Below are positions 37,253-58,220 of a stretch of 64,000 nucleotides of DNA, piece by piece. Each line of letters begins with the position of its first letter. The first letter of the stretch is position 1. The DNA lies in contig JACIWK010000003.1 of the NCBI GenBank assembly GCA_014360985.1, positions 1,061-65,060 of the forward strand. The letters are read 5' to 3'. Origin of the DNA: Candidatus Bipolaricaulota bacterium. GTDB lineage: Bacteria; Bipolaricaulota; Bipolaricaulia; Bipolaricaulales; Bipolaricaulaceae. Below the pieces are notes generated by a model that was not told the DNA's origin, did not search any database, and was given only the letters and a program-made list of their open reading frames with translations. The position numbers and the translations under genes were made by a program.

Positions 37253-37845
37253 GCGACTACTTCGTGCACGAATCCGCGTACGTGGACCCCGGGGCCAAAG
37301 TCGGCCCAGGGACGAAGATCTGGCACTTCAGCCACGTGATGGGCGGGGCCGAGATCGGGGCGAACTGCAGCCTGGGCCAGAACGTGTTCGTGGCCGATCG
37401 GGTGAAGATCGGGAACCATGTCAAGATCCAGAACAACGTGTCCGTGTACGAGGGCGTGGTCCTGGAGGACTACGTGTTCTGTGGTCCGAGCTGTGTGTTC
37501 ACCAACGTGCGCACACCCCGGTCCGCGTTCCCCCGCAACCGCCCCGAGGACTACGTACCGACGGTGGTCAAGCACGGGGCGTCGATCGGGGCCAATGCCA
37601 CGGTTGTCTGCGGGGTGACGATCGGCGAGTGGGCGTTCGTTGCCGCTGGCGCGGTGGTGACGAAGGACGTGCCGCCCTACGCCCTCGTGGCCGGCGTCCC
37701 CGCCCGCATAATTGGCTGGGCCTGTGAGTGCGGCGTGCCATTACGATTCGAAGGCGGCGGTGACCAGGAGGCGACGTGCGCCGAGTGCGGACGGGTGTAT
37801 CGGCTGAAAGGGGAGGGCATGGAGTTGGTGCGGGAGAGCTCGTAG
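37249..37845 (+). CDS. wbpD: UDP-2-acetamido-3-amino-sugar N-acetyltransferase
   Basis: [60 protein letters not shown]. Confidence 0.9.
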
Positions 37846-37870
37846 CATGTGGCTTGTAGCCAGTGGAGCA
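37843..37870 (+). repeat. G-rich heptamer arm (4 units) starting at the wbpD stop codon
   Basis: TAGCATG TGGCTTG TAGCCAG TGGAGCA. Confidence 0.8.
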
Positions 37871-37884
37871 GACCAGGAGTGTGC

Positions 37885-38397
37885 ATGCCGGAGTGCGTGG
37901 AGAACCTTGAGGTCTGGCAGCGTGGCGTCAGGCTCGTGAAGGCCGTATACGAGATCACCCGTCACTGGCCATCGGAAGAGCAGTATGGTCTGACCTCCCA
38001 GTTCCGCCGCGCGGCTGTCTCCGTACCGACCAACATCGCTGAGGGGGTCGGTCGAGGGGGACGCCGCGAGATCGTGCGGTTCGCCCGGGTTTCGCTCGGC
38101 TCACTGTACGAGCTGAGCACGTTGTTGGTCATCGCTGAGGGACTGGGGTGTGTCAGCGAAGGGTCGGCGGCGAAGATGCGTGCCGAGATCGATGCCCTCA
38201 CCCGGCAGCTGGCGGCCTTCATCCGTTACCAGCAGGGTCGCCTGCCCGGCCGGCCTCCAGGTTCCACCCACGCTCCACCCCCGGATGGAGACGCCGCCGG
38301 CCCCCCCTACAAACCACAAGCTTTGATCCACTCGCCACAAGCCACACGCCACAAGCCAAGAACCGCAAGGAGAACAGATGACCATTCCCATCCTTGA
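37885..38397 (+). CDS. Four helix bundle protein (23S rRNA IVS protein / Avd-like fold) with repeat-encoded C-terminal tail
   Basis: LEVWQ....L...VY..T..WP.EE.YGLTSQ.RRAAVS.PTNIAEG..R......RF...SLGS.YE; low-complexity tail runs through the heptamer arm. Confidence 0.9.
   Translation: MPECVENLEVWQRGVRLVKAVYEITRHWPSEEQYGLTSQFRRAAVSVPTNIAEGVGRGGRREIVRFARVSLGSLYELSTLLVIAEGLGCVSEGSAAKMRAEIDALTRQLAAFIRYQQGRLPGRPPGSTHAPPPDGDAAGPPYKPQALIHSPQATRHKPRTARRTDDHSHP
38307..38369 (+). repeat. C-rich heptamer arm (9 units), complementary to the 37843 arm
   Basis: CTACAAA CCACAAG CTTTGAT CCACTCG CCACAAG CCACACG CCACAAG CCAAGAA CCGCAAG. Confidence 0.88.
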
Positions 38398-39742
38398 CCT
38401 CAAACGCCAGTACGCGTCCATCAAGCCCCAGATCGATGCTGCCATCCAGCGGGTGGTGGAGTCGGGGCGGTTCATCCTCGGCCCCGAGGTCGAGGCGTTG
38501 GAGCAGGAGATCGCCGCCTACTGCGGCGTCAAGCACGCGATCGGGGTGGCGAGCGGTACCGACGCGTTGCTCCTCTCGCTGCGGGCGCTTGGGATCGGGC
38601 CGGGGGATGGGGTGATCGTCCCCAGCTTCACCTTCTTCGCCACCGCCGGCGCGGTCCACAACGTGGGGGCAACCCCCGTCTTCTGCGACATCGACCCCCG
38701 CACCTTCAACCTTGATCCCGACTCGGTTCGAGAGATCATGGCCCGTGGCCCGTGGCTCGTAGCCAGTGGGACCCCACAGGGCATTCCTCCCACATGCTAC
38801 AAGCCACAGGCAACTAGCCACATCACATGCCACTCGCCACACGCCACTCGCCCCAGGCCGCGCGCCATCATCCCCGTCCACCTCTACGGCCAGATGGCGG
38901 ACATGGACGCAATCATGGAGCTCGCCCACGAGTTCGGCCTCTATGTGATCGAAGACGCCGCCCAGTCCATCGGCGCCGAGTACGTTGGGCAAGTAGCTAG
39001 TAGCCAGTGGCCTGTAGATGAAGGCTCCCCACCCCCCACAAGCCACCTCCCGCTCTCCACAGGCCACAGGCCCCAGGCCCCAGGCCACAAGCTAGGAGCA
39101 ACTAGCCACAAGCCACAAACCAAGAAAGCCGGCACCGTCGGCCATCTCGGCTGTTTCTCCTTCTTCCCCACCAAGAACCTCGGGGCGTACGGGGACGGGG
39201 GGATGGTCGTGACGAACGACGACGAGCTCGCCGAGCGGGTGCGGATGCTGCGCGTGCACGGGTCCAAGCCCAAGTACTACCACCACATCGTGGGGTACAA
39301 CTCCCGGCTCGATGCCCTCCAGGCCGCGATCCTGAGGGCGAAGCTCCCCCATCTGGACGAGTGGACAGCGGCGCGGAGGAGACTCGCCGCCCGGTACGAC
39401 GAGCTCCTGGCTGGGGTGCCGGGGATCGAGCTCCCCCACCGGGCGGCGGGGCAGACCCACATCTTCCACCAGTACACGATCCGAGTGTTGGACGGCAAGC
39501 GCGACGCGTTGCGCGAGCACCTCAAGGCGCAGGGAATCGGGACCGAGATCTACTACCCATTGCCATTGCACCTCCAGGAGTGCTTTGCCCATCTCGGGTA
39601 CCAAGAAGGGGACCTCCCCGAGAGCGAGAAGGCAAGCCGCGAGGCGTTGTCCTTGCCCATGTTTCCCGAACTCACCGATGAGGAGCAGGCTTGCGTCGCC
39701 AACTCCATCCGCTCCTTCTTGGGCTCAAGCTGCCAACCATGA
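38378..39742 (+). CDS. DegT/DnrJ/EryC1/StrS aminotransferase (WbpE-like) with two in-frame repeat insertions
   Basis: SGTDAL, IEDAAQSIGA, FSFFPTKNLG.YGDGG, GYNSRLDALQAA; 454 aa, two low-complexity loops. Confidence 0.92.
   Translation: MTIPILDLKRQYASIKPQIDAAIQRVVESGRFILGPEVEALEQEIAAYCGVKHAIGVASGTDALLLSLRALGIGPGDGVIVPSFTFFATAGAVHNVGATPVFCDIDPRTFNLDPDSVREIMARGPWLVASGTPQGIPPTCYKPQATSHITCHSPHATRPRPRAIIPVHLYGQMADMDAIMELAHEFGLYVIEDAAQSIGAEYVGQVASSQWPVDEGSPPPTSHLPLSTGHRPQAPGHKLGATSHKPQTKKAGTVGHLGCFSFFPTKNLGAYGDGGMVVTNDDELAERVRMLRVHGSKPKYYHHIVGYNSRLDALQAAILRAKLPHLDEWTAARRRLAARYDELLAGVPGIELPHRAAGQTHIFHQYTIRVLDGKRDALREHLKAQGIGTEIYYPLPLHLQECFAHLGYQEGDLPESEKASREALSLPMFPELTDEEQACVANSIRSFLGSSCQP
38739..38857 (+). 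repeat. In-frame inverted heptamer insert 1 in the aminotransferase
   Basis: TGGCCCG TGGCCCG TGGCTCG TAGCCAG TGG followed by CCACAGG..CCACATG CTACAAG CCACAGG CAACTAG..CCACTCG CCACACG CCACTCG CCCCAGG. Confidence 0.88.
38986..39126 (+). repeat. In-frame inverted heptamer insert 2 in the aminotransferase
   Basis: TAGCTAG TAGCCAG TGGCCTG, then 13 consecutive in-phase C-rich heptamers at 39036-39126. Confidence 0.9.
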
Positions 39743-39764: not shown

Positions 39765-39834
39765 CCACGGACGCTGGACCATGGACCATGCACTTCGTCC
39801 CACACGCCACTCGCCACAGGCCACGTACAGCATG
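39765..39834 (+). repeat. C-rich heptamer array (10 units) ending at the TAGAAT -10 box of the MNT-HEPN pair
   Basis: CCACGGA CGCTGGA CCATGGA CCATGCA CTTCGTC CCACACG CCACTCG CCACAGG CCACGTA CAGCATG. Confidence 0.85.
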
Positions 39835-40608: not shown

Positions 40609-40747
40609 CCACTCGCCATGGACCATGGACCCCTCGCACCACGCACTACGGACCATGGACCATGCACTTCGTCCCACACGCCACTCCCCACAAGCCGACC
40701 CCGCACCACGCACTATGGACCATGGACCATGGACCATGCACTCCGAC
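40609..40747 (+). repeat. C-rich heptamer array (about 19 units, small phase slips) ending at the wecB start
   Basis: CCATGGA, CCACGCA, CCACACG and CCACAAG units; 40650-40686 is identical to 39776-39812. Confidence 0.88.
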
Positions 40748-40749
40748 CC

Positions 40750-41961
40750 ATGCGCCTAGCCAACGTCGTCGGTGCCCGTCCTCAGTTCATCAAGCTCGCT
40801 CCGGTCCTGAAGGCCATCGACCAGCACAACCGGGAGCACCCCGAGGCCCAGGTTGAGGAGATCTTGATCCACACGGGGCAGCACTACGACTACGAGATGT
40901 CCCAGGTGTTCTTCGACGAGCTGGGGTTGAAGGCACCTGACCACCATTTGGGCGTTAGGTCAGGGTCCCATGGCCAGCAGACCGGGGAGATGCTCAAGCG
41001 GATCGAAGAGGTGCTTCTCAAGGAGAAGCCCGATCTGGTGGCGGTCTACGGCGACACGAACACCACCCTGGCCGGGGCCCTGGCAGCGGCCAAGCTGCAT
41101 GTCCCGGTGGCCCACGTGGAGGCGGGCTTACGCAGCTTCAACCGGAAGATGCCCGAGGAGATCAACCGCGTGCTCACCGACCATGTGGCGGATCTCCTCT
41201 TCTGCCCCACCGAGACCGCAGTACAGAACCTGAAAAGGGAGGGTTTCACCAACATCGTCAACGATGGCCATCTCCTCCCGCTTGACTATGCACCACGGAC
41301 TCCAGGCGACAAGCCACGCACTACACGCCACAAGCCACTAGCCATCAATGTTGGCGACGTGATGTACGATGCGGTGCTCCAGTACGCCGAGCTTGCCGAA
41401 GCGAAGTCAGGGATCCTCGAGCGCTTAAAGCTTGAGCTCAGAGGCTACGCCCTGGCCACCGTCCACCGCGCGGAGAACACCGACGATCCAGTGCGTCTCA
41501 GGGCGATCTTCCAGGGGCTGGTGAAGCTTGCCCGGGAGGGGCTGACGGTGGTGGTTCCCTTGCACCCCCGCACCCGTAATGCCCTCTCTTCTCTCTCCCT
41601 TACCCCTGACCCTTCGCCCTGCAATCTGCTCATAATCGAGCCGGTCTCTTACCTGGACATGCTCGTGCTCGAGAAGAACGCCCGGGTTATTCTGACGGAT
41701 TCCGGCGGGGTGCAAAAGGAGGCCTTCTTCTTCCGCGTCCCCTGCGTGACCCTCCGGGAGGAGACCGAGTGGGTGGAGACGGTGGAGGCGGGTTGGAATG
41801 TGCTCGTGGGCGGTGACCCGGAACGGATTCTCCAGGCGGCCCTAATGGCTCAGCAAGGAGAGGAGACCACTTGGCCCTACGGTAACGGCCGGGCGGCGGA
41901 GAGGATTGCCGGCTTTCTGGAACGCGGATTATGCTGGGGATGGCGCCATGAACGAGCCTAG
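40750..41961 (+). CDS. wecB: UDP-N-acetyl-hexosamine(uronate) 2-epimerase, non-hydrolysing (WecB/WbpI-like)
   Basis: VVGARPQFIK, HTGQHYD, VYGDTNTTLAG, HVEAGLRSFN..MPEEINR, TDSGGVQKEA, ETEW. Confidence 0.93.
   Translation: MRLANVVGARPQFIKLAPVLKAIDQHNREHPEAQVEEILIHTGQHYDYEMSQVFFDELGLKAPDHHLGVRSGSHGQQTGEMLKRIEEVLLKEKPDLVAVYGDTNTTLAGALAAAKLHVPVAHVEAGLRSFNRKMPEEINRVLTDHVADLLFCPTETAVQNLKREGFTNIVNDGHLLPLDYAPRTPGDKPRTTRHKPLAINVGDVMYDAVLQYAELAEAKSGILERLKLELRGYALATVHRAENTDDPVRLRAIFQGLVKLAREGLTVVVPLHPRTRNALSSLSLTPDPSPCNLLIIEPVSYLDMLVLEKNARVILTDSGGVQKEAFFFRVPCVTLREETEWVETVEAGWNVLVGGDPERILQAALMAQQGEETTWPYGNGRAAERIAGFLERGLCWGWRHERA
41286..41348 (+). repeat. In-frame C-rich heptamer run (9 units) inside wecB
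   Basis: CTATGCA CCACGGA CTCCAGG CGACAAG CCACGCA CTACACG CCACAAG CCACTAG CCATCAA. Confidence 0.8.
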
Positions 41962-56845: not shown

Positions 56846-57083
56846 ATTCCCTCACGACGCACCCAGACAACGGGTCCTAGCTGCGCTGGGGCGACTGGGG
56901 TTTGTGGTCGTGAGGGAAGCTGAGCACATCGCTCTTCAGCGGGTCAACCTGGATGGGAGCATTACCCCGATGACGATCCCGAATCACAGGGCCTACAAGG
57001 CAAGCACGTGGAGGGTCGTCCTCCGCCAGGCTGGGATCTCCCGGGAGGCGTTCTTGGAGATGTACGATGGACCGCGTTCGTGA
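56838..57083 (+). CDS. HicA-like toxin
   Basis: LGRLGF.VVR...HI......TIPNH......T...VL.QAGIS.E.F. Confidence 0.82.
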   Translation: MSRFPHDAPRQRVLAALGRLGFVVVREAEHIALQRVNLDGSITPMTIPNHRAYKASTWRVVLRQAGISREAFLEMYDGPRS

Positions 57084-57890
57084 CCGGATGCCGATGTCCG
57101 CCCCGGACATCTCCGAGGAGGACGTGCGGGCGGTGGCCGAGGTGGTTCGATCGGGCCGGCTGGCCCTCGGACCTCAAACGGAGGAGTTTGAACGACTCAT
57201 CGCCGAGTATGTCGGGGCGAAGCACGCCGTGGCGGTGAGCTCGGGGACGACGGCGCTCCACCTCGTGGTGCGGGCCCTGGGGATCGGCCCGGGCAATGAG
57301 GTCTTGGTCCCGTCCTTCACGTTCGCCGCCAGTGTGAACGTGATCCTCTACGAGCGAGGAACGCCGGTGTTCGTGGACATCGAACCGGATACGTACAACC
57401 TGGACCCGGAGGACCTCGCGCGCAAGATCACGCCCCGCACGAAGGCGATCCTCGCCGTGGACGTGTTCGGCCACCCGGCGGAATGGGACGCGATCCTGCG
57501 GATTGCGGGTAAGCACGGTCTGCGGGTGATCGACGACGCCTGCGAGGCCCTCGGCGCGGAGTACAAGGGGAAGAAGCTCGGCGGGTTCGGCGACGCGGCG
57601 ACGTTCGCCTTCTACCCGAACAAGCAGATGACCACCGGGGAGGGCGGGGTGGTCGTGACCGACGACGCGGAGCTGGCTTCCCTCTGCCGGAGCCTGCGCA
57701 ACCAGGGCCGGGGGGAGATGGGGTCGTGGCTCGAACACGAGCGGCTGGGGTACAACTACCGGATGACGGAGATGTCGGCAGCGCTCGGGGTGTCGCAGCT
57801 CGCGCGGATCGAGGCTCTCCTCGCCAAGCGGGACCGGGTGGCGCGGATGTACTCGGAGCGGCTTTCGGGCCTGGAGTTCGTCCGCCCGCC
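57067..57890 (+). pseudogene. DegT-family aminotransferase (PglE-like), truncated at the 3' end
   Basis: SSGTTALH, DDACEALGA, FAFYPNKQMTTGEGG, GYNYR; homology stops after LEFVRPP and the ORF runs on as nonsense to 58032. Confidence 0.8.
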
Positions 57891-58220
57891 AGCGCCTTCG
57901 TTCTCCCCTCGAAGCGGGAGGGGCTCCCCCGATCGGTGCTGGAGGCGATGGCGGCCGGGCTCCCCGTGGTGGTCACCGACGTGCGGGGCAACCACGACCT
58001 CGTCGAACACGGGAAGAACGGGTTTCTGGTGAAGGTCGGGGATGTCCACGGCCTCACCGAGGCGTTGGTCGCCCTGGCCCGGGACGGGAAGCTGCGAAGG
58101 CGAATGGGAGAGGACGGACGGGCCAGGGCGAAGGAGTACGCGTTGGAGCGGGTTCTCCAGGAGATGGGGACGATCTACGGGCGGTACCTCACACATGACG
58201 ATGAGGTGAACGGCGGATGA
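57888..58220 (+). pseudogene. 3' half of a GT4 glycosyltransferase fused out of frame to the truncated aminotransferase
   Basis: AFVLPSKREGLPRSVLEAMAAGLPVVVTDVRGNHDLV..G.NGFLV in a different frame. Confidence 0.8.

Follow-up and report, generated by a model that had tools for sequence, protein, structure and literature searches.

How can the gene of a working enzyme hold two hairpin-forming arrays of seven-nucleotide repeats within its reading frame, and where did these arrays come from? The question is raised by a gene for a WbpE/DegT-type, pyridoxal phosphate (PLP)-dependent sugar aminotransferase in a Candidatus Bipolaricaulota bacterium (GenBank assembly GCA_014360985.1; 1.56 Mb, 67.6% G+C, 41 contigs). 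The window analyzed here is a 64,000-nucleotide stretch of this genome (contig JACIWK010000003.1, positions 1,061 to 65,060), and coordinates refer to it unless another contig or locus is named. The aminotransferase gene carries two in-frame modules of about 110-135 nt each, built of heptamer repeats and able to form hairpins. Directly upstream lies a gene for a four-helix-bundle (4HB) protein that is itself framed by heptamer arms. An initial annotation of the locus had proposed that the two modules are cargo-less copies of this 4HB element, either tolerated as protein loops or removed or bypassed at the RNA level. In this study, the inserts were compared with the neighboring cassette and with orthologous loci of the phylum. 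The results make it likely that the inserts are translated, tolerated and fast-evolving cargo-less copies of the stem of the upstream 4HB cassette, residing in an aminotransferase that still works.

Structure of the inserts

Each insert consists of a G-rich left arm, a short spacer and a complementary C-rich right arm (Table 1), as the initial annotation had described. Tandem Repeats Finder (TRF) reported period-7 arrays at 38739-38769, 38790-38867, 38992-39017 and 39057-39122, and the heptamer-periodic portion around site 1 extends over 38739-38867. The left arm of insert 1 is composed of the units TGGCCCG, TGGCCCG, TGGCTCG, TAGCCAG and a final TGG. The right arm of insert 2 had been read as 13 units in perfect phase, and the sequence bears this out: the first seven are CCACAAG, CCACCTC, CCGCTCT, CCACAGG, CCACAGG, CCCCAGG and CCCCAGG, and the remaining six are CCACAAG, CTAGGAG, CAACTAG, CCACAAG, CCACAAA and CCAAGAA. 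The units of the inserts are imperfect, with at most two identical neighbors in a row.

An inverted-repeat search paired 38988-39014 with 39081-39107, and 39003-39018 with 39056-39071. Folding of the two inserts had been proposed as a check, and both fold better than dinucleotide-shuffled sequence (z = -5.4 and z = -2.6 for inserts 1 and 2, respectively). The spacers, 17-20 nt in length, are gene-free by sequence. Lacking a PF05635 gene, the inserts are therefore at most cargo-less derivatives of the 4HB cassette. The same inserts are present in independent assemblies (L083 and L146/L228; L numbers are our handles for related loci), and an assembly artifact was therefore rejected.

Table 1. 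Positions of the aminotransferase gene, its two inserts and the adjacent 4HB cassette in the window (ORF, open reading frame; IVS, intervening sequence)
Feature	Position	Strand	Basis and remarks
WbpE/DegT-type PLP-dependent sugar aminotransferase gene, 454 aa	38378..39742	+	ORF list, Pfam; carries both inserts
Site 1 segment, codon coordinates	38732..38851	+	Residues 119-158, 120 nt; orthologue baseline 27-30 nt
Insert 1, G-rich left arm	38739..38769	+	4.4 heptamers, ends in GTAGCCAGTGG; TRF, 11-mer count
Insert 1, spacer	38770..38789	+	Sequence
Insert 1, C-rich right arm, GCCAC-NN units	38790..38867	+	TRF rows 38790-38822 and 38824-38867
Site 2 segment, codon coordinates	38987..39124	+	Residues 204-249, 138 nt; orthologue baseline 6 nt
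Insert 2, G-rich left arm with GTAGCCAGTGG	38988..39018	+	TRF, inverted-repeat search, 11-mer count
Insert 2, spacer	39019..39035	+	Sequence
Insert 2, C-rich right arm, 13 heptamers in a single phase	39036..39126	+	Sequence; TRF row 39057-39122
4HB cassette, G-rich left arm with GTAGCCAGTGG	37838..37870	+	Inverted repeat; starts at the stop codon of the upstream acetyltransferase
4HB gene, PF05635, 23S rRNA IVS protein family	37885..38397	+	Pfam E 3.1e-32, residues 6-110; genome search
4HB cassette, C-rich right arm, GCCAC-NN	38324..38358	+	TRF, inverted repeat, collinear alignment

Reading frame and protein fold

The host protein matches Pfam PF01041 (DegT/DnrJ/EryC1 family) with an E value of 1.7e-123, and the match is split into two stretches. 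A phmmer search of the PDB aligned it with 7b0d, 2oga and WbpE (3nu7) in the blocks 3-118, 159-205 and 249-450; the two stretches outside these blocks are the two reported inserts. BLASTP against the second DegT homolog of the window, which starts at 57067, opened a 36-residue gap at NLDP...AI and a 44-residue gap at GAEY/KGKK, in accord with the number of extra residues given initially. The nearest proteins come from Candidatus Bipolaricaulota (Acetothermia), and the catalytic motifs DAAQ and FSFFPTK are invariant. The ratio of nonsynonymous to synonymous substitution rates (dN/dS) of the core is 0.16 relative to L083 and 0.16 relative to L146, indicating that the gene is functional and under purifying selection; the inserts, in these comparisons, gave 0.49 and 0.28 against the 0.16 of the core.

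Across both inserts, frames 1 and 2 contain nine stop triplets and the gene frame contains none, so the TAG triplets do fall out of frame, as had been noted. Conservation of the frame among relatives was assessed in two samples. The protein survey comprised the 120 closest proteins and the window's own, all from gene calls, and a site with at least eight extra residues was counted as expanded; this was the case at site 1 in 41 proteins and at site 2 in 73. The insert peptides are translated short repeats, with PQATSHK corresponding to three CCACAAG units and GPRTTDH to three GGACCAC units. The DNA sample, which is independent of gene calls, comprised 30 loci found by six-frame searching in 151 genomes of the phylum together with loci from other routes; scans of genome contigs and metagenome contigs with the DegT protein gave at least three and at least two close relatives, respectively, among the matches listed. 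In the DNA sample, site 1 has a baseline of 27-30 nt, and about 10 expanded alleles were found there (72-168 nt); for site 2 the baseline is 6 nt, with about 16 expanded alleles (33-228 nt). Among these roughly 26 alleles there are about 20 different lengths, all of them divisible by three, and no allele contains an in-frame stop. Because lengths and stops stay constrained in all of them, the inserts appear to be translated rather than removed.

An AlphaFold2 model of the protein reached a predicted template modeling score (pTM) of 0.80, with a predicted local distance difference test (pLDDT) score of 85-97 over most of the core. Residues 127-155 and 209-243 scored below 50 and were modeled without secondary structure. 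Insert 2 is placed at the tip of a beta-hairpin (bridges 201-202 and 249-250) and insert 1 between a helix and the next strand. Together, the frame data and the model support translation of the inserts into disordered loops that the intact fold tolerates. Tolerance as loops, the first of the two fates proposed initially, thus agrees with the in-frame and stop-free state of all expanded alleles, the core dN/dS of 0.16 and the predicted disorder.

The public call of this gene (38738-39742, protein P0002) has 334 aa and begins at Met121 (MARGPW...), within insert 1, and so loses 120 N-terminal residues. The insert seems to mislead the gene caller, and such inserts therefore degrade automatic annotation. 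The second DegT homolog (57067-58032) matches the family only to about residue 275; its final 45 or so residues (PAPSFSPRSGRGSPDRCWRRW...) look out of frame, suggesting a frameshift or a truncated gene.

Kinship with the arms of the 4HB cassette

The aminotransferase belongs to a polysaccharide cluster with the gene order Gfo/Idh/MocA oxidoreductase, hexapeptide acetyltransferase, 4HB gene, DegT, MNT-HEPN pair and UDP-N-acetylglucosamine (UDP-GlcNAc) 2-epimerase. The arms of the 4HB cassette form an inverted repeat in which 37838-37870 pairs with 38324-38356 over 33 nt at 82% complementarity. The initial annotation had pointed to a 10-mer, TAGCCAGTGG, at 37857, 38760 and 39001, and all three copies were found. 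With the preceding G it becomes the 11-mer GTAGCCAGTGG, which occurs exactly three times in the 1.56-Mb genome, each time on the same strand and at the inner end of a left arm: that of the cassette, that of insert 1 and that of insert 2. When the cargo gene is taken out of the cassette, the remainder aligns collinearly with both inserts, from the left arm through an oligo-C run to the GCCAC-NN right arm. The inserts and the cassette arms are alike in orientation, in their GCCAC-NN units and in the oligo-C run before the right arm. Both inserts keep the layout of a G-rich arm upstream and a complementary C-rich arm downstream, co-oriented with the host transcript. The heptamer family around the MNT-HEPN pair immediately downstream, ATGGACC, is a different one; the inserts match the adjacent cassette instead. 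Heptamer arrays per genome were counted at one relaxed periodicity threshold; at this threshold the genome holds 11, and seven of them lie in the aminotransferase locus.

There is good support for placing the inserts and the arms of the 4HB cassette in one element family. Of the initial proposal of cargo-less copies of the 4HB element, the kinship with the cassette arms stands, on the evidence of the 11-mer, the collinear alignment and the tracking across the phylum described below. How the cargo came to be missing is a separate matter: the inserts may be relatives of the cassette stem that arose by loss of the cargo gene or by copying of the arms alone.

The open frame of the 4HB gene continues through the C-rich right arm (38220-38397), and its stop overlaps the DegT start. 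In L083 (5700-5896), a 40-nt unit indel moves the tail of the 4HB gene into another frame; the tail is therefore probably not constrained coding sequence. The only other PF05635 gene of the genome (contig C38, 63341-63655, minus strand) is without heptamer arms and is located directly downstream of a putative tRNA gene identified by eye. Therefore, not every 4HB gene is armed. Two further sets of repeats were seen in the cluster. The MNT-HEPN pair is flanked by ATGGACC/TGGACCA heptamer arrays plus GCCAC-NN units (39775-39824 and 40616-40738), and period-7 and period-21 arrays (CCACGCACTACACGCCACAAG) are present inside the UDP-GlcNAc 2-epimerase ORF at 41293-41344, forming another in-frame run.

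Distribution and unit types in the phylum

At 13 loci, which represent two or more families of the class, a 4HB gene is found directly upstream of the DegT ortholog, and 12 of the 13 have expanded sites, with L144 (Ca. Bipolaricaulis sibiricus) as the exception. Eighteen loci have sufficient upstream sequence and no 4HB gene; only two or three of these have expansions, one of which is non-periodic. The comparison of orthologs for presence or absence of the inserts, proposed initially, therefore came out in favor of the link with the 4HB gene. Inserts occur at the same two sites in at least three families of the class.

Each expanded lineage uses in the gene the unit family of its local cassette arms; five such families were distinguished: GCCACNN (window, L083, L228, L148 and L245), CGAACNN (L003, and nested within GCCACNN arrays in L147 and L231), the 9-mer CGAACYCNA (L229 and L233), GACTCNN (L234) and GSACCAC (L232). 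The 8-mer sharing of the inserts is 0.18 with the arms of their own locus, against 0.05 with the arms of other loci. At site 2 of L231 and L147, the CGAACYC family (encoding LEPRTPNPELRT) is nested in the GCCAC-NN right arm; the same family also forms the arms of the directly upstream 4HB cassette in both.

Among the 4HB loci of the phylum (n = 30), lag-7 arrays were present on both sides in 20 and on one side in five, and four had a period of 8 or 9; the lag-7 arrays are G-rich upstream and C-rich downstream, with a unit sequence that differs per locus. Arrays of GCCACAR were found in 28 of the 151 genomes, and the reversed control pattern was almost without matches. Where pattern-found arrays fell in long ORFs of other genomes, three were in the same DegT gene, and the rest lay either in 5' extensions ahead of genuine starts or in GC-rich frames that are spurious. 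The order acetyltransferase-4HB-DegT is conserved in L144 (CP034928.1) and 12 other loci, which span two or more families of the class. The cassette has therefore long occupied this junction and has been inherited mainly vertically, rather than having been inserted recently.

Length variation among relatives

The flanks of L083 are nearly identical to those of the window, and the alignment shows left arms and spacers that are almost unchanged and C-rich arms that vary by indels of units. In insert 2 the two do not differ at all in left arm and spacer. Compared with the window, L083 has a 40-nt indel in the right arm of the cassette, a net gain of 33 nt at site 1 and a loss of 21 nt at site 2, the latter two in frame; the 21 nt are missing from the C-rich arm of insert 2. 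In L146, site 2 as a whole is 63 nt shorter. Between fixed anchors, site 2 measures 171, 150 and 108 nt in three close relatives, and the differences of 21, 42 and 63 nt are multiples of both 7 and 3. Loop sequences and lengths vary greatly among lineages, and some lineages carry at the same two sites single-arm arrays that are unable to fold. L083 (7270-7600) also has two MNT-HEPN pairs, with 48 and 153 nt of extra repeat in the spacer after DegT.

Five loci (L003, L144, L148, L232 and L237) have a site 1 of baseline length (27-30 nt) that is written in the genome's own heptamer, with a lag-7 identity of 0.52-0.75 versus 0.13-0.35 elsewhere. Since the baseline length is kept, this looks like overwriting and not like insertion. 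In L237, the 4HB cassette that matches the site-1 heptamer sits elsewhere in the genome. The empty site of L144 (GAGTAC AAGGGCCGC AAGGCC) was also compared with the inserts; the arms are inverted in the inserts, and no clear duplication was apparent.

Discussion

The results are best explained by copies of the upstream cassette stem, without its cargo, that are translated in a functional aminotransferase. The inserts would occupy two permissive loops, one at a surface helix-to-strand junction and one at the tip of the beta-hairpin preceding the strand of the PLP-lysine. They would remain in the mRNA and be translated to disordered loops rich in Pro, Gln, Ala, Thr, Ser and His, and the enzyme would probably be little affected. 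Repeat units would be gained and lost, chiefly in the C-rich arm, so that the inserts change quickly, and selection would retain only those variants that have a length divisible by three and no stop. The arms may have been copied locally, either between nearby arrays, by recombination, gene conversion or template switching, or through internal deletion of a copy of the cassette.

Several points weigh against this explanation. No clear target-site duplication or other insertion signature was seen. The test of 4HB adjacency versus expansion, which favors the link with Fisher p values from 4e-5 to 8e-6, is uncorrected for phylogeny. L236 has a hairpin insert and no 4HB gene within about 1.1 kb upstream, and L144 (Ca. 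Bipolaricaulis sibiricus) has the cassette and no inserts in its 380-aa ortholog. At the level of whole genomes, there is no association of GCCACAR arrays with 4HB genes, which were present in 15 of 28 array-positive and 56 of 123 array-negative genomes; three genomes contain 7-9 arrays and no detected 4HB gene. The link is seen at the level of the locus and in the unit type only. Moreover, we infer translation of the inserts from conservation of the frame only, and their dN/dS below 1 could come from constraint on the repeat or the RNA and not on the peptide.

A bolder version of local copying, which we consider rather doubtful, gives the cassette an active role. The 4HB cassettes, whose protein belongs to the Avd/IVS-protein family, would not stay in place: copies of their arms, made in cis with orientation and unit preserved, would enter chosen loops of the neighboring gene, sometimes overwriting a loop at unchanged length. 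The cassette would then drive a local, templated spreading of repeats, perhaps via a nucleic-acid-binding 4HB protein. If this is true, fast-evolving and always in-frame disordered loops would be generated in host proteins, and the excess of heptamer repeats in bacteria, as yet unexplained, could be due in part to this process.

Other explanations treat the hairpins as something other than tolerated copies. They might be mRNA intervening sequences, cut from the transcript (e.g., by RNase III) or skipped by the ribosome, leaving an enzyme without the extra residues. The modules do resemble ORF-less rRNA intervening sequences in size (about 110-135 nt) and in stem-loop form, and the genome encodes RNase III, which in Coxiella cuts inside the stem of an IVS with heptamer repeats and a 4HB ORF (PMC4990558). 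However, excision before translation would lift the constraint on the frame, whereas all of the roughly 26 expanded alleles are in frame and stop-free at lengths of 33-228 nt, with nine stops in the other two frames. The free variation in length modulo three and in stops that is expected from the second fate proposed initially, RNA-level removal or bypass, is absent, and this part of the proposal is not upheld. The products of RNase III cleavage also stay unjoined (PMC4990558), and excision would therefore destroy the mRNA. The sequence lacks the hallmarks of ribosomal bypass, an in-frame stop and a take-off/landing pair, and this candidate was rejected. To our knowledge, no bacterial system rejoins mRNA fragments cut by RNase III. 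Rfam gave no family at threshold and only sub-threshold look-alikes of miRNA precursors, which amount to generic hairpins; introns, riboswitches and other known RNA families were rejected on this ground. Inteins were rejected as well, the inserts being too short and without intein motifs. An intervening sequence at the mRNA level is thus scarcely credible.

A contingency locus, in which 7-base slippage would shift the frame and make a surface-polysaccharide gene phase-variable, is very unlikely. Several features would suit such a mechanism: the unit length is not divisible by three, the gene is part of a polysaccharide cluster, seven of the 11 heptamer arrays of the genome at the threshold used are in this one locus, and the number of units varies between close relatives. 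Known phase-variable genes are commonly OFF in some strains, yet none of the expanded alleles is out of frame. The imperfect units with no more than two identical neighbors would lower slippage, and the 9-mers of L229 and L233 are unable to shift the frame at all. It is also unlikely that the hairpins are kept for a function, either as RNA (a site for RNase III or degradation, or a translational pause that tunes operon expression) or as protein loops. Occupation of the same two sites in at least three families, the insert dN/dS below 1 and the identical left arm and spacer of insert 2 in the window and L083 speak for a function; the great divergence of loop sequence and length between lineages, the single-arm arrays that do not fold, the absence of inserts from Ca. 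B. sibiricus and many other orthologs, and the predicted disorder of the loops speak against it. Tolerated, cargo-less copies of the cassette stem remain the preferred explanation.

Comparison with known systems

Rickettsia palindromic elements (RPEs) are palindromic repeats located in frame within protein-coding genes (PMC10969869). Like RPEs, the inserts are hairpins of about 100-150 bp in an ORF whose frame is kept; the peptide is found at a position compatible with the fold, and the gene is functional. RPEs, however, are dispersed conserved families with dozens of copies in unrelated genes, whereas the inserts consist of short tandem units of 7 or 9 nt. The inserts are also few and local, the 11-mer that marks the module being found only three times in the genome, and they recur at the same two sites of one gene and track the neighboring cassette. 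With 11 arrays in the genome at the threshold used, seven of them in the locus, they do not form a dispersed family of many copies.

The inserts also resemble the 23S rRNA IVSs of Coxiella, Leptospira and Salmonella, which are stem-loops with complementary ends, variable heptamers in the stem region and, in the full-size form, a PF05635 cargo. The ORF-less forms of these IVSs are similar in size to the inserts. The IVS of Coxiella contains an S23p ORF and variable-number heptamer repeats and is cleaved by RNase III within its stem (PMC4990558). Unlike these elements, the inserts are located in the DegT coding sequence instead of helix 25 or 45 of the rRNA, and the conservation of their frame suggests that they are translated and not excised. 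With the heptamer-armed 4HB cassette itself they share the layout of the arms, but there is no PF05635 gene between them.

Heptamer repeats as such are reported to be little studied (PMC4692102). The GGGAATC repeats of Xanthomonas, the GGGGAYT repeats of Nostoc and the short tandemly repeated repetitive (STRR) heptamers of cyanobacteria are reported to be intergenic and under-represented in coding regions (PMC4692102). The inserts share with them the tandem 7-nt units, which sometimes stand in inverted pairs, and the large variation in length between close relatives. No protein family is tied to those repeats, whereas the inserts are in frame and match the arms of a 4HB cassette. As in contingency loci, a tandem unit whose length is not a multiple of three is present in a surface-polysaccharide gene and its copy number varies among relatives; unlike in contingency loci, there is no OFF allele among about 26, the units are degenerate, and some lineages have 9-mers. 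Our search of the literature on the 4HB family together with heptamer arms found only the papers on the Coxiella IVS and on the Xanthomonas and Nostoc heptamers.

Taken together, the comparison gives good support to a view of the inserts as in-frame hairpins akin to RPEs and made of the stem of an IVS-type cassette. In-frame palindromic DNA in working genes is known mainly from Rickettsia, and the repeat-armed 4HB cassette is in print only as an rRNA intervening sequence. This locus unites the two, since the same stem is present with a gene between the genes of an operon and without a gene inside a coding sequence. Any mechanism must explain that the inserts follow the adjacent cassette, that their unit follows the local arms in five families, and that every allele is in frame. 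These three phylum-wide results make the origin and spread of bacterial heptamer repeats testable.

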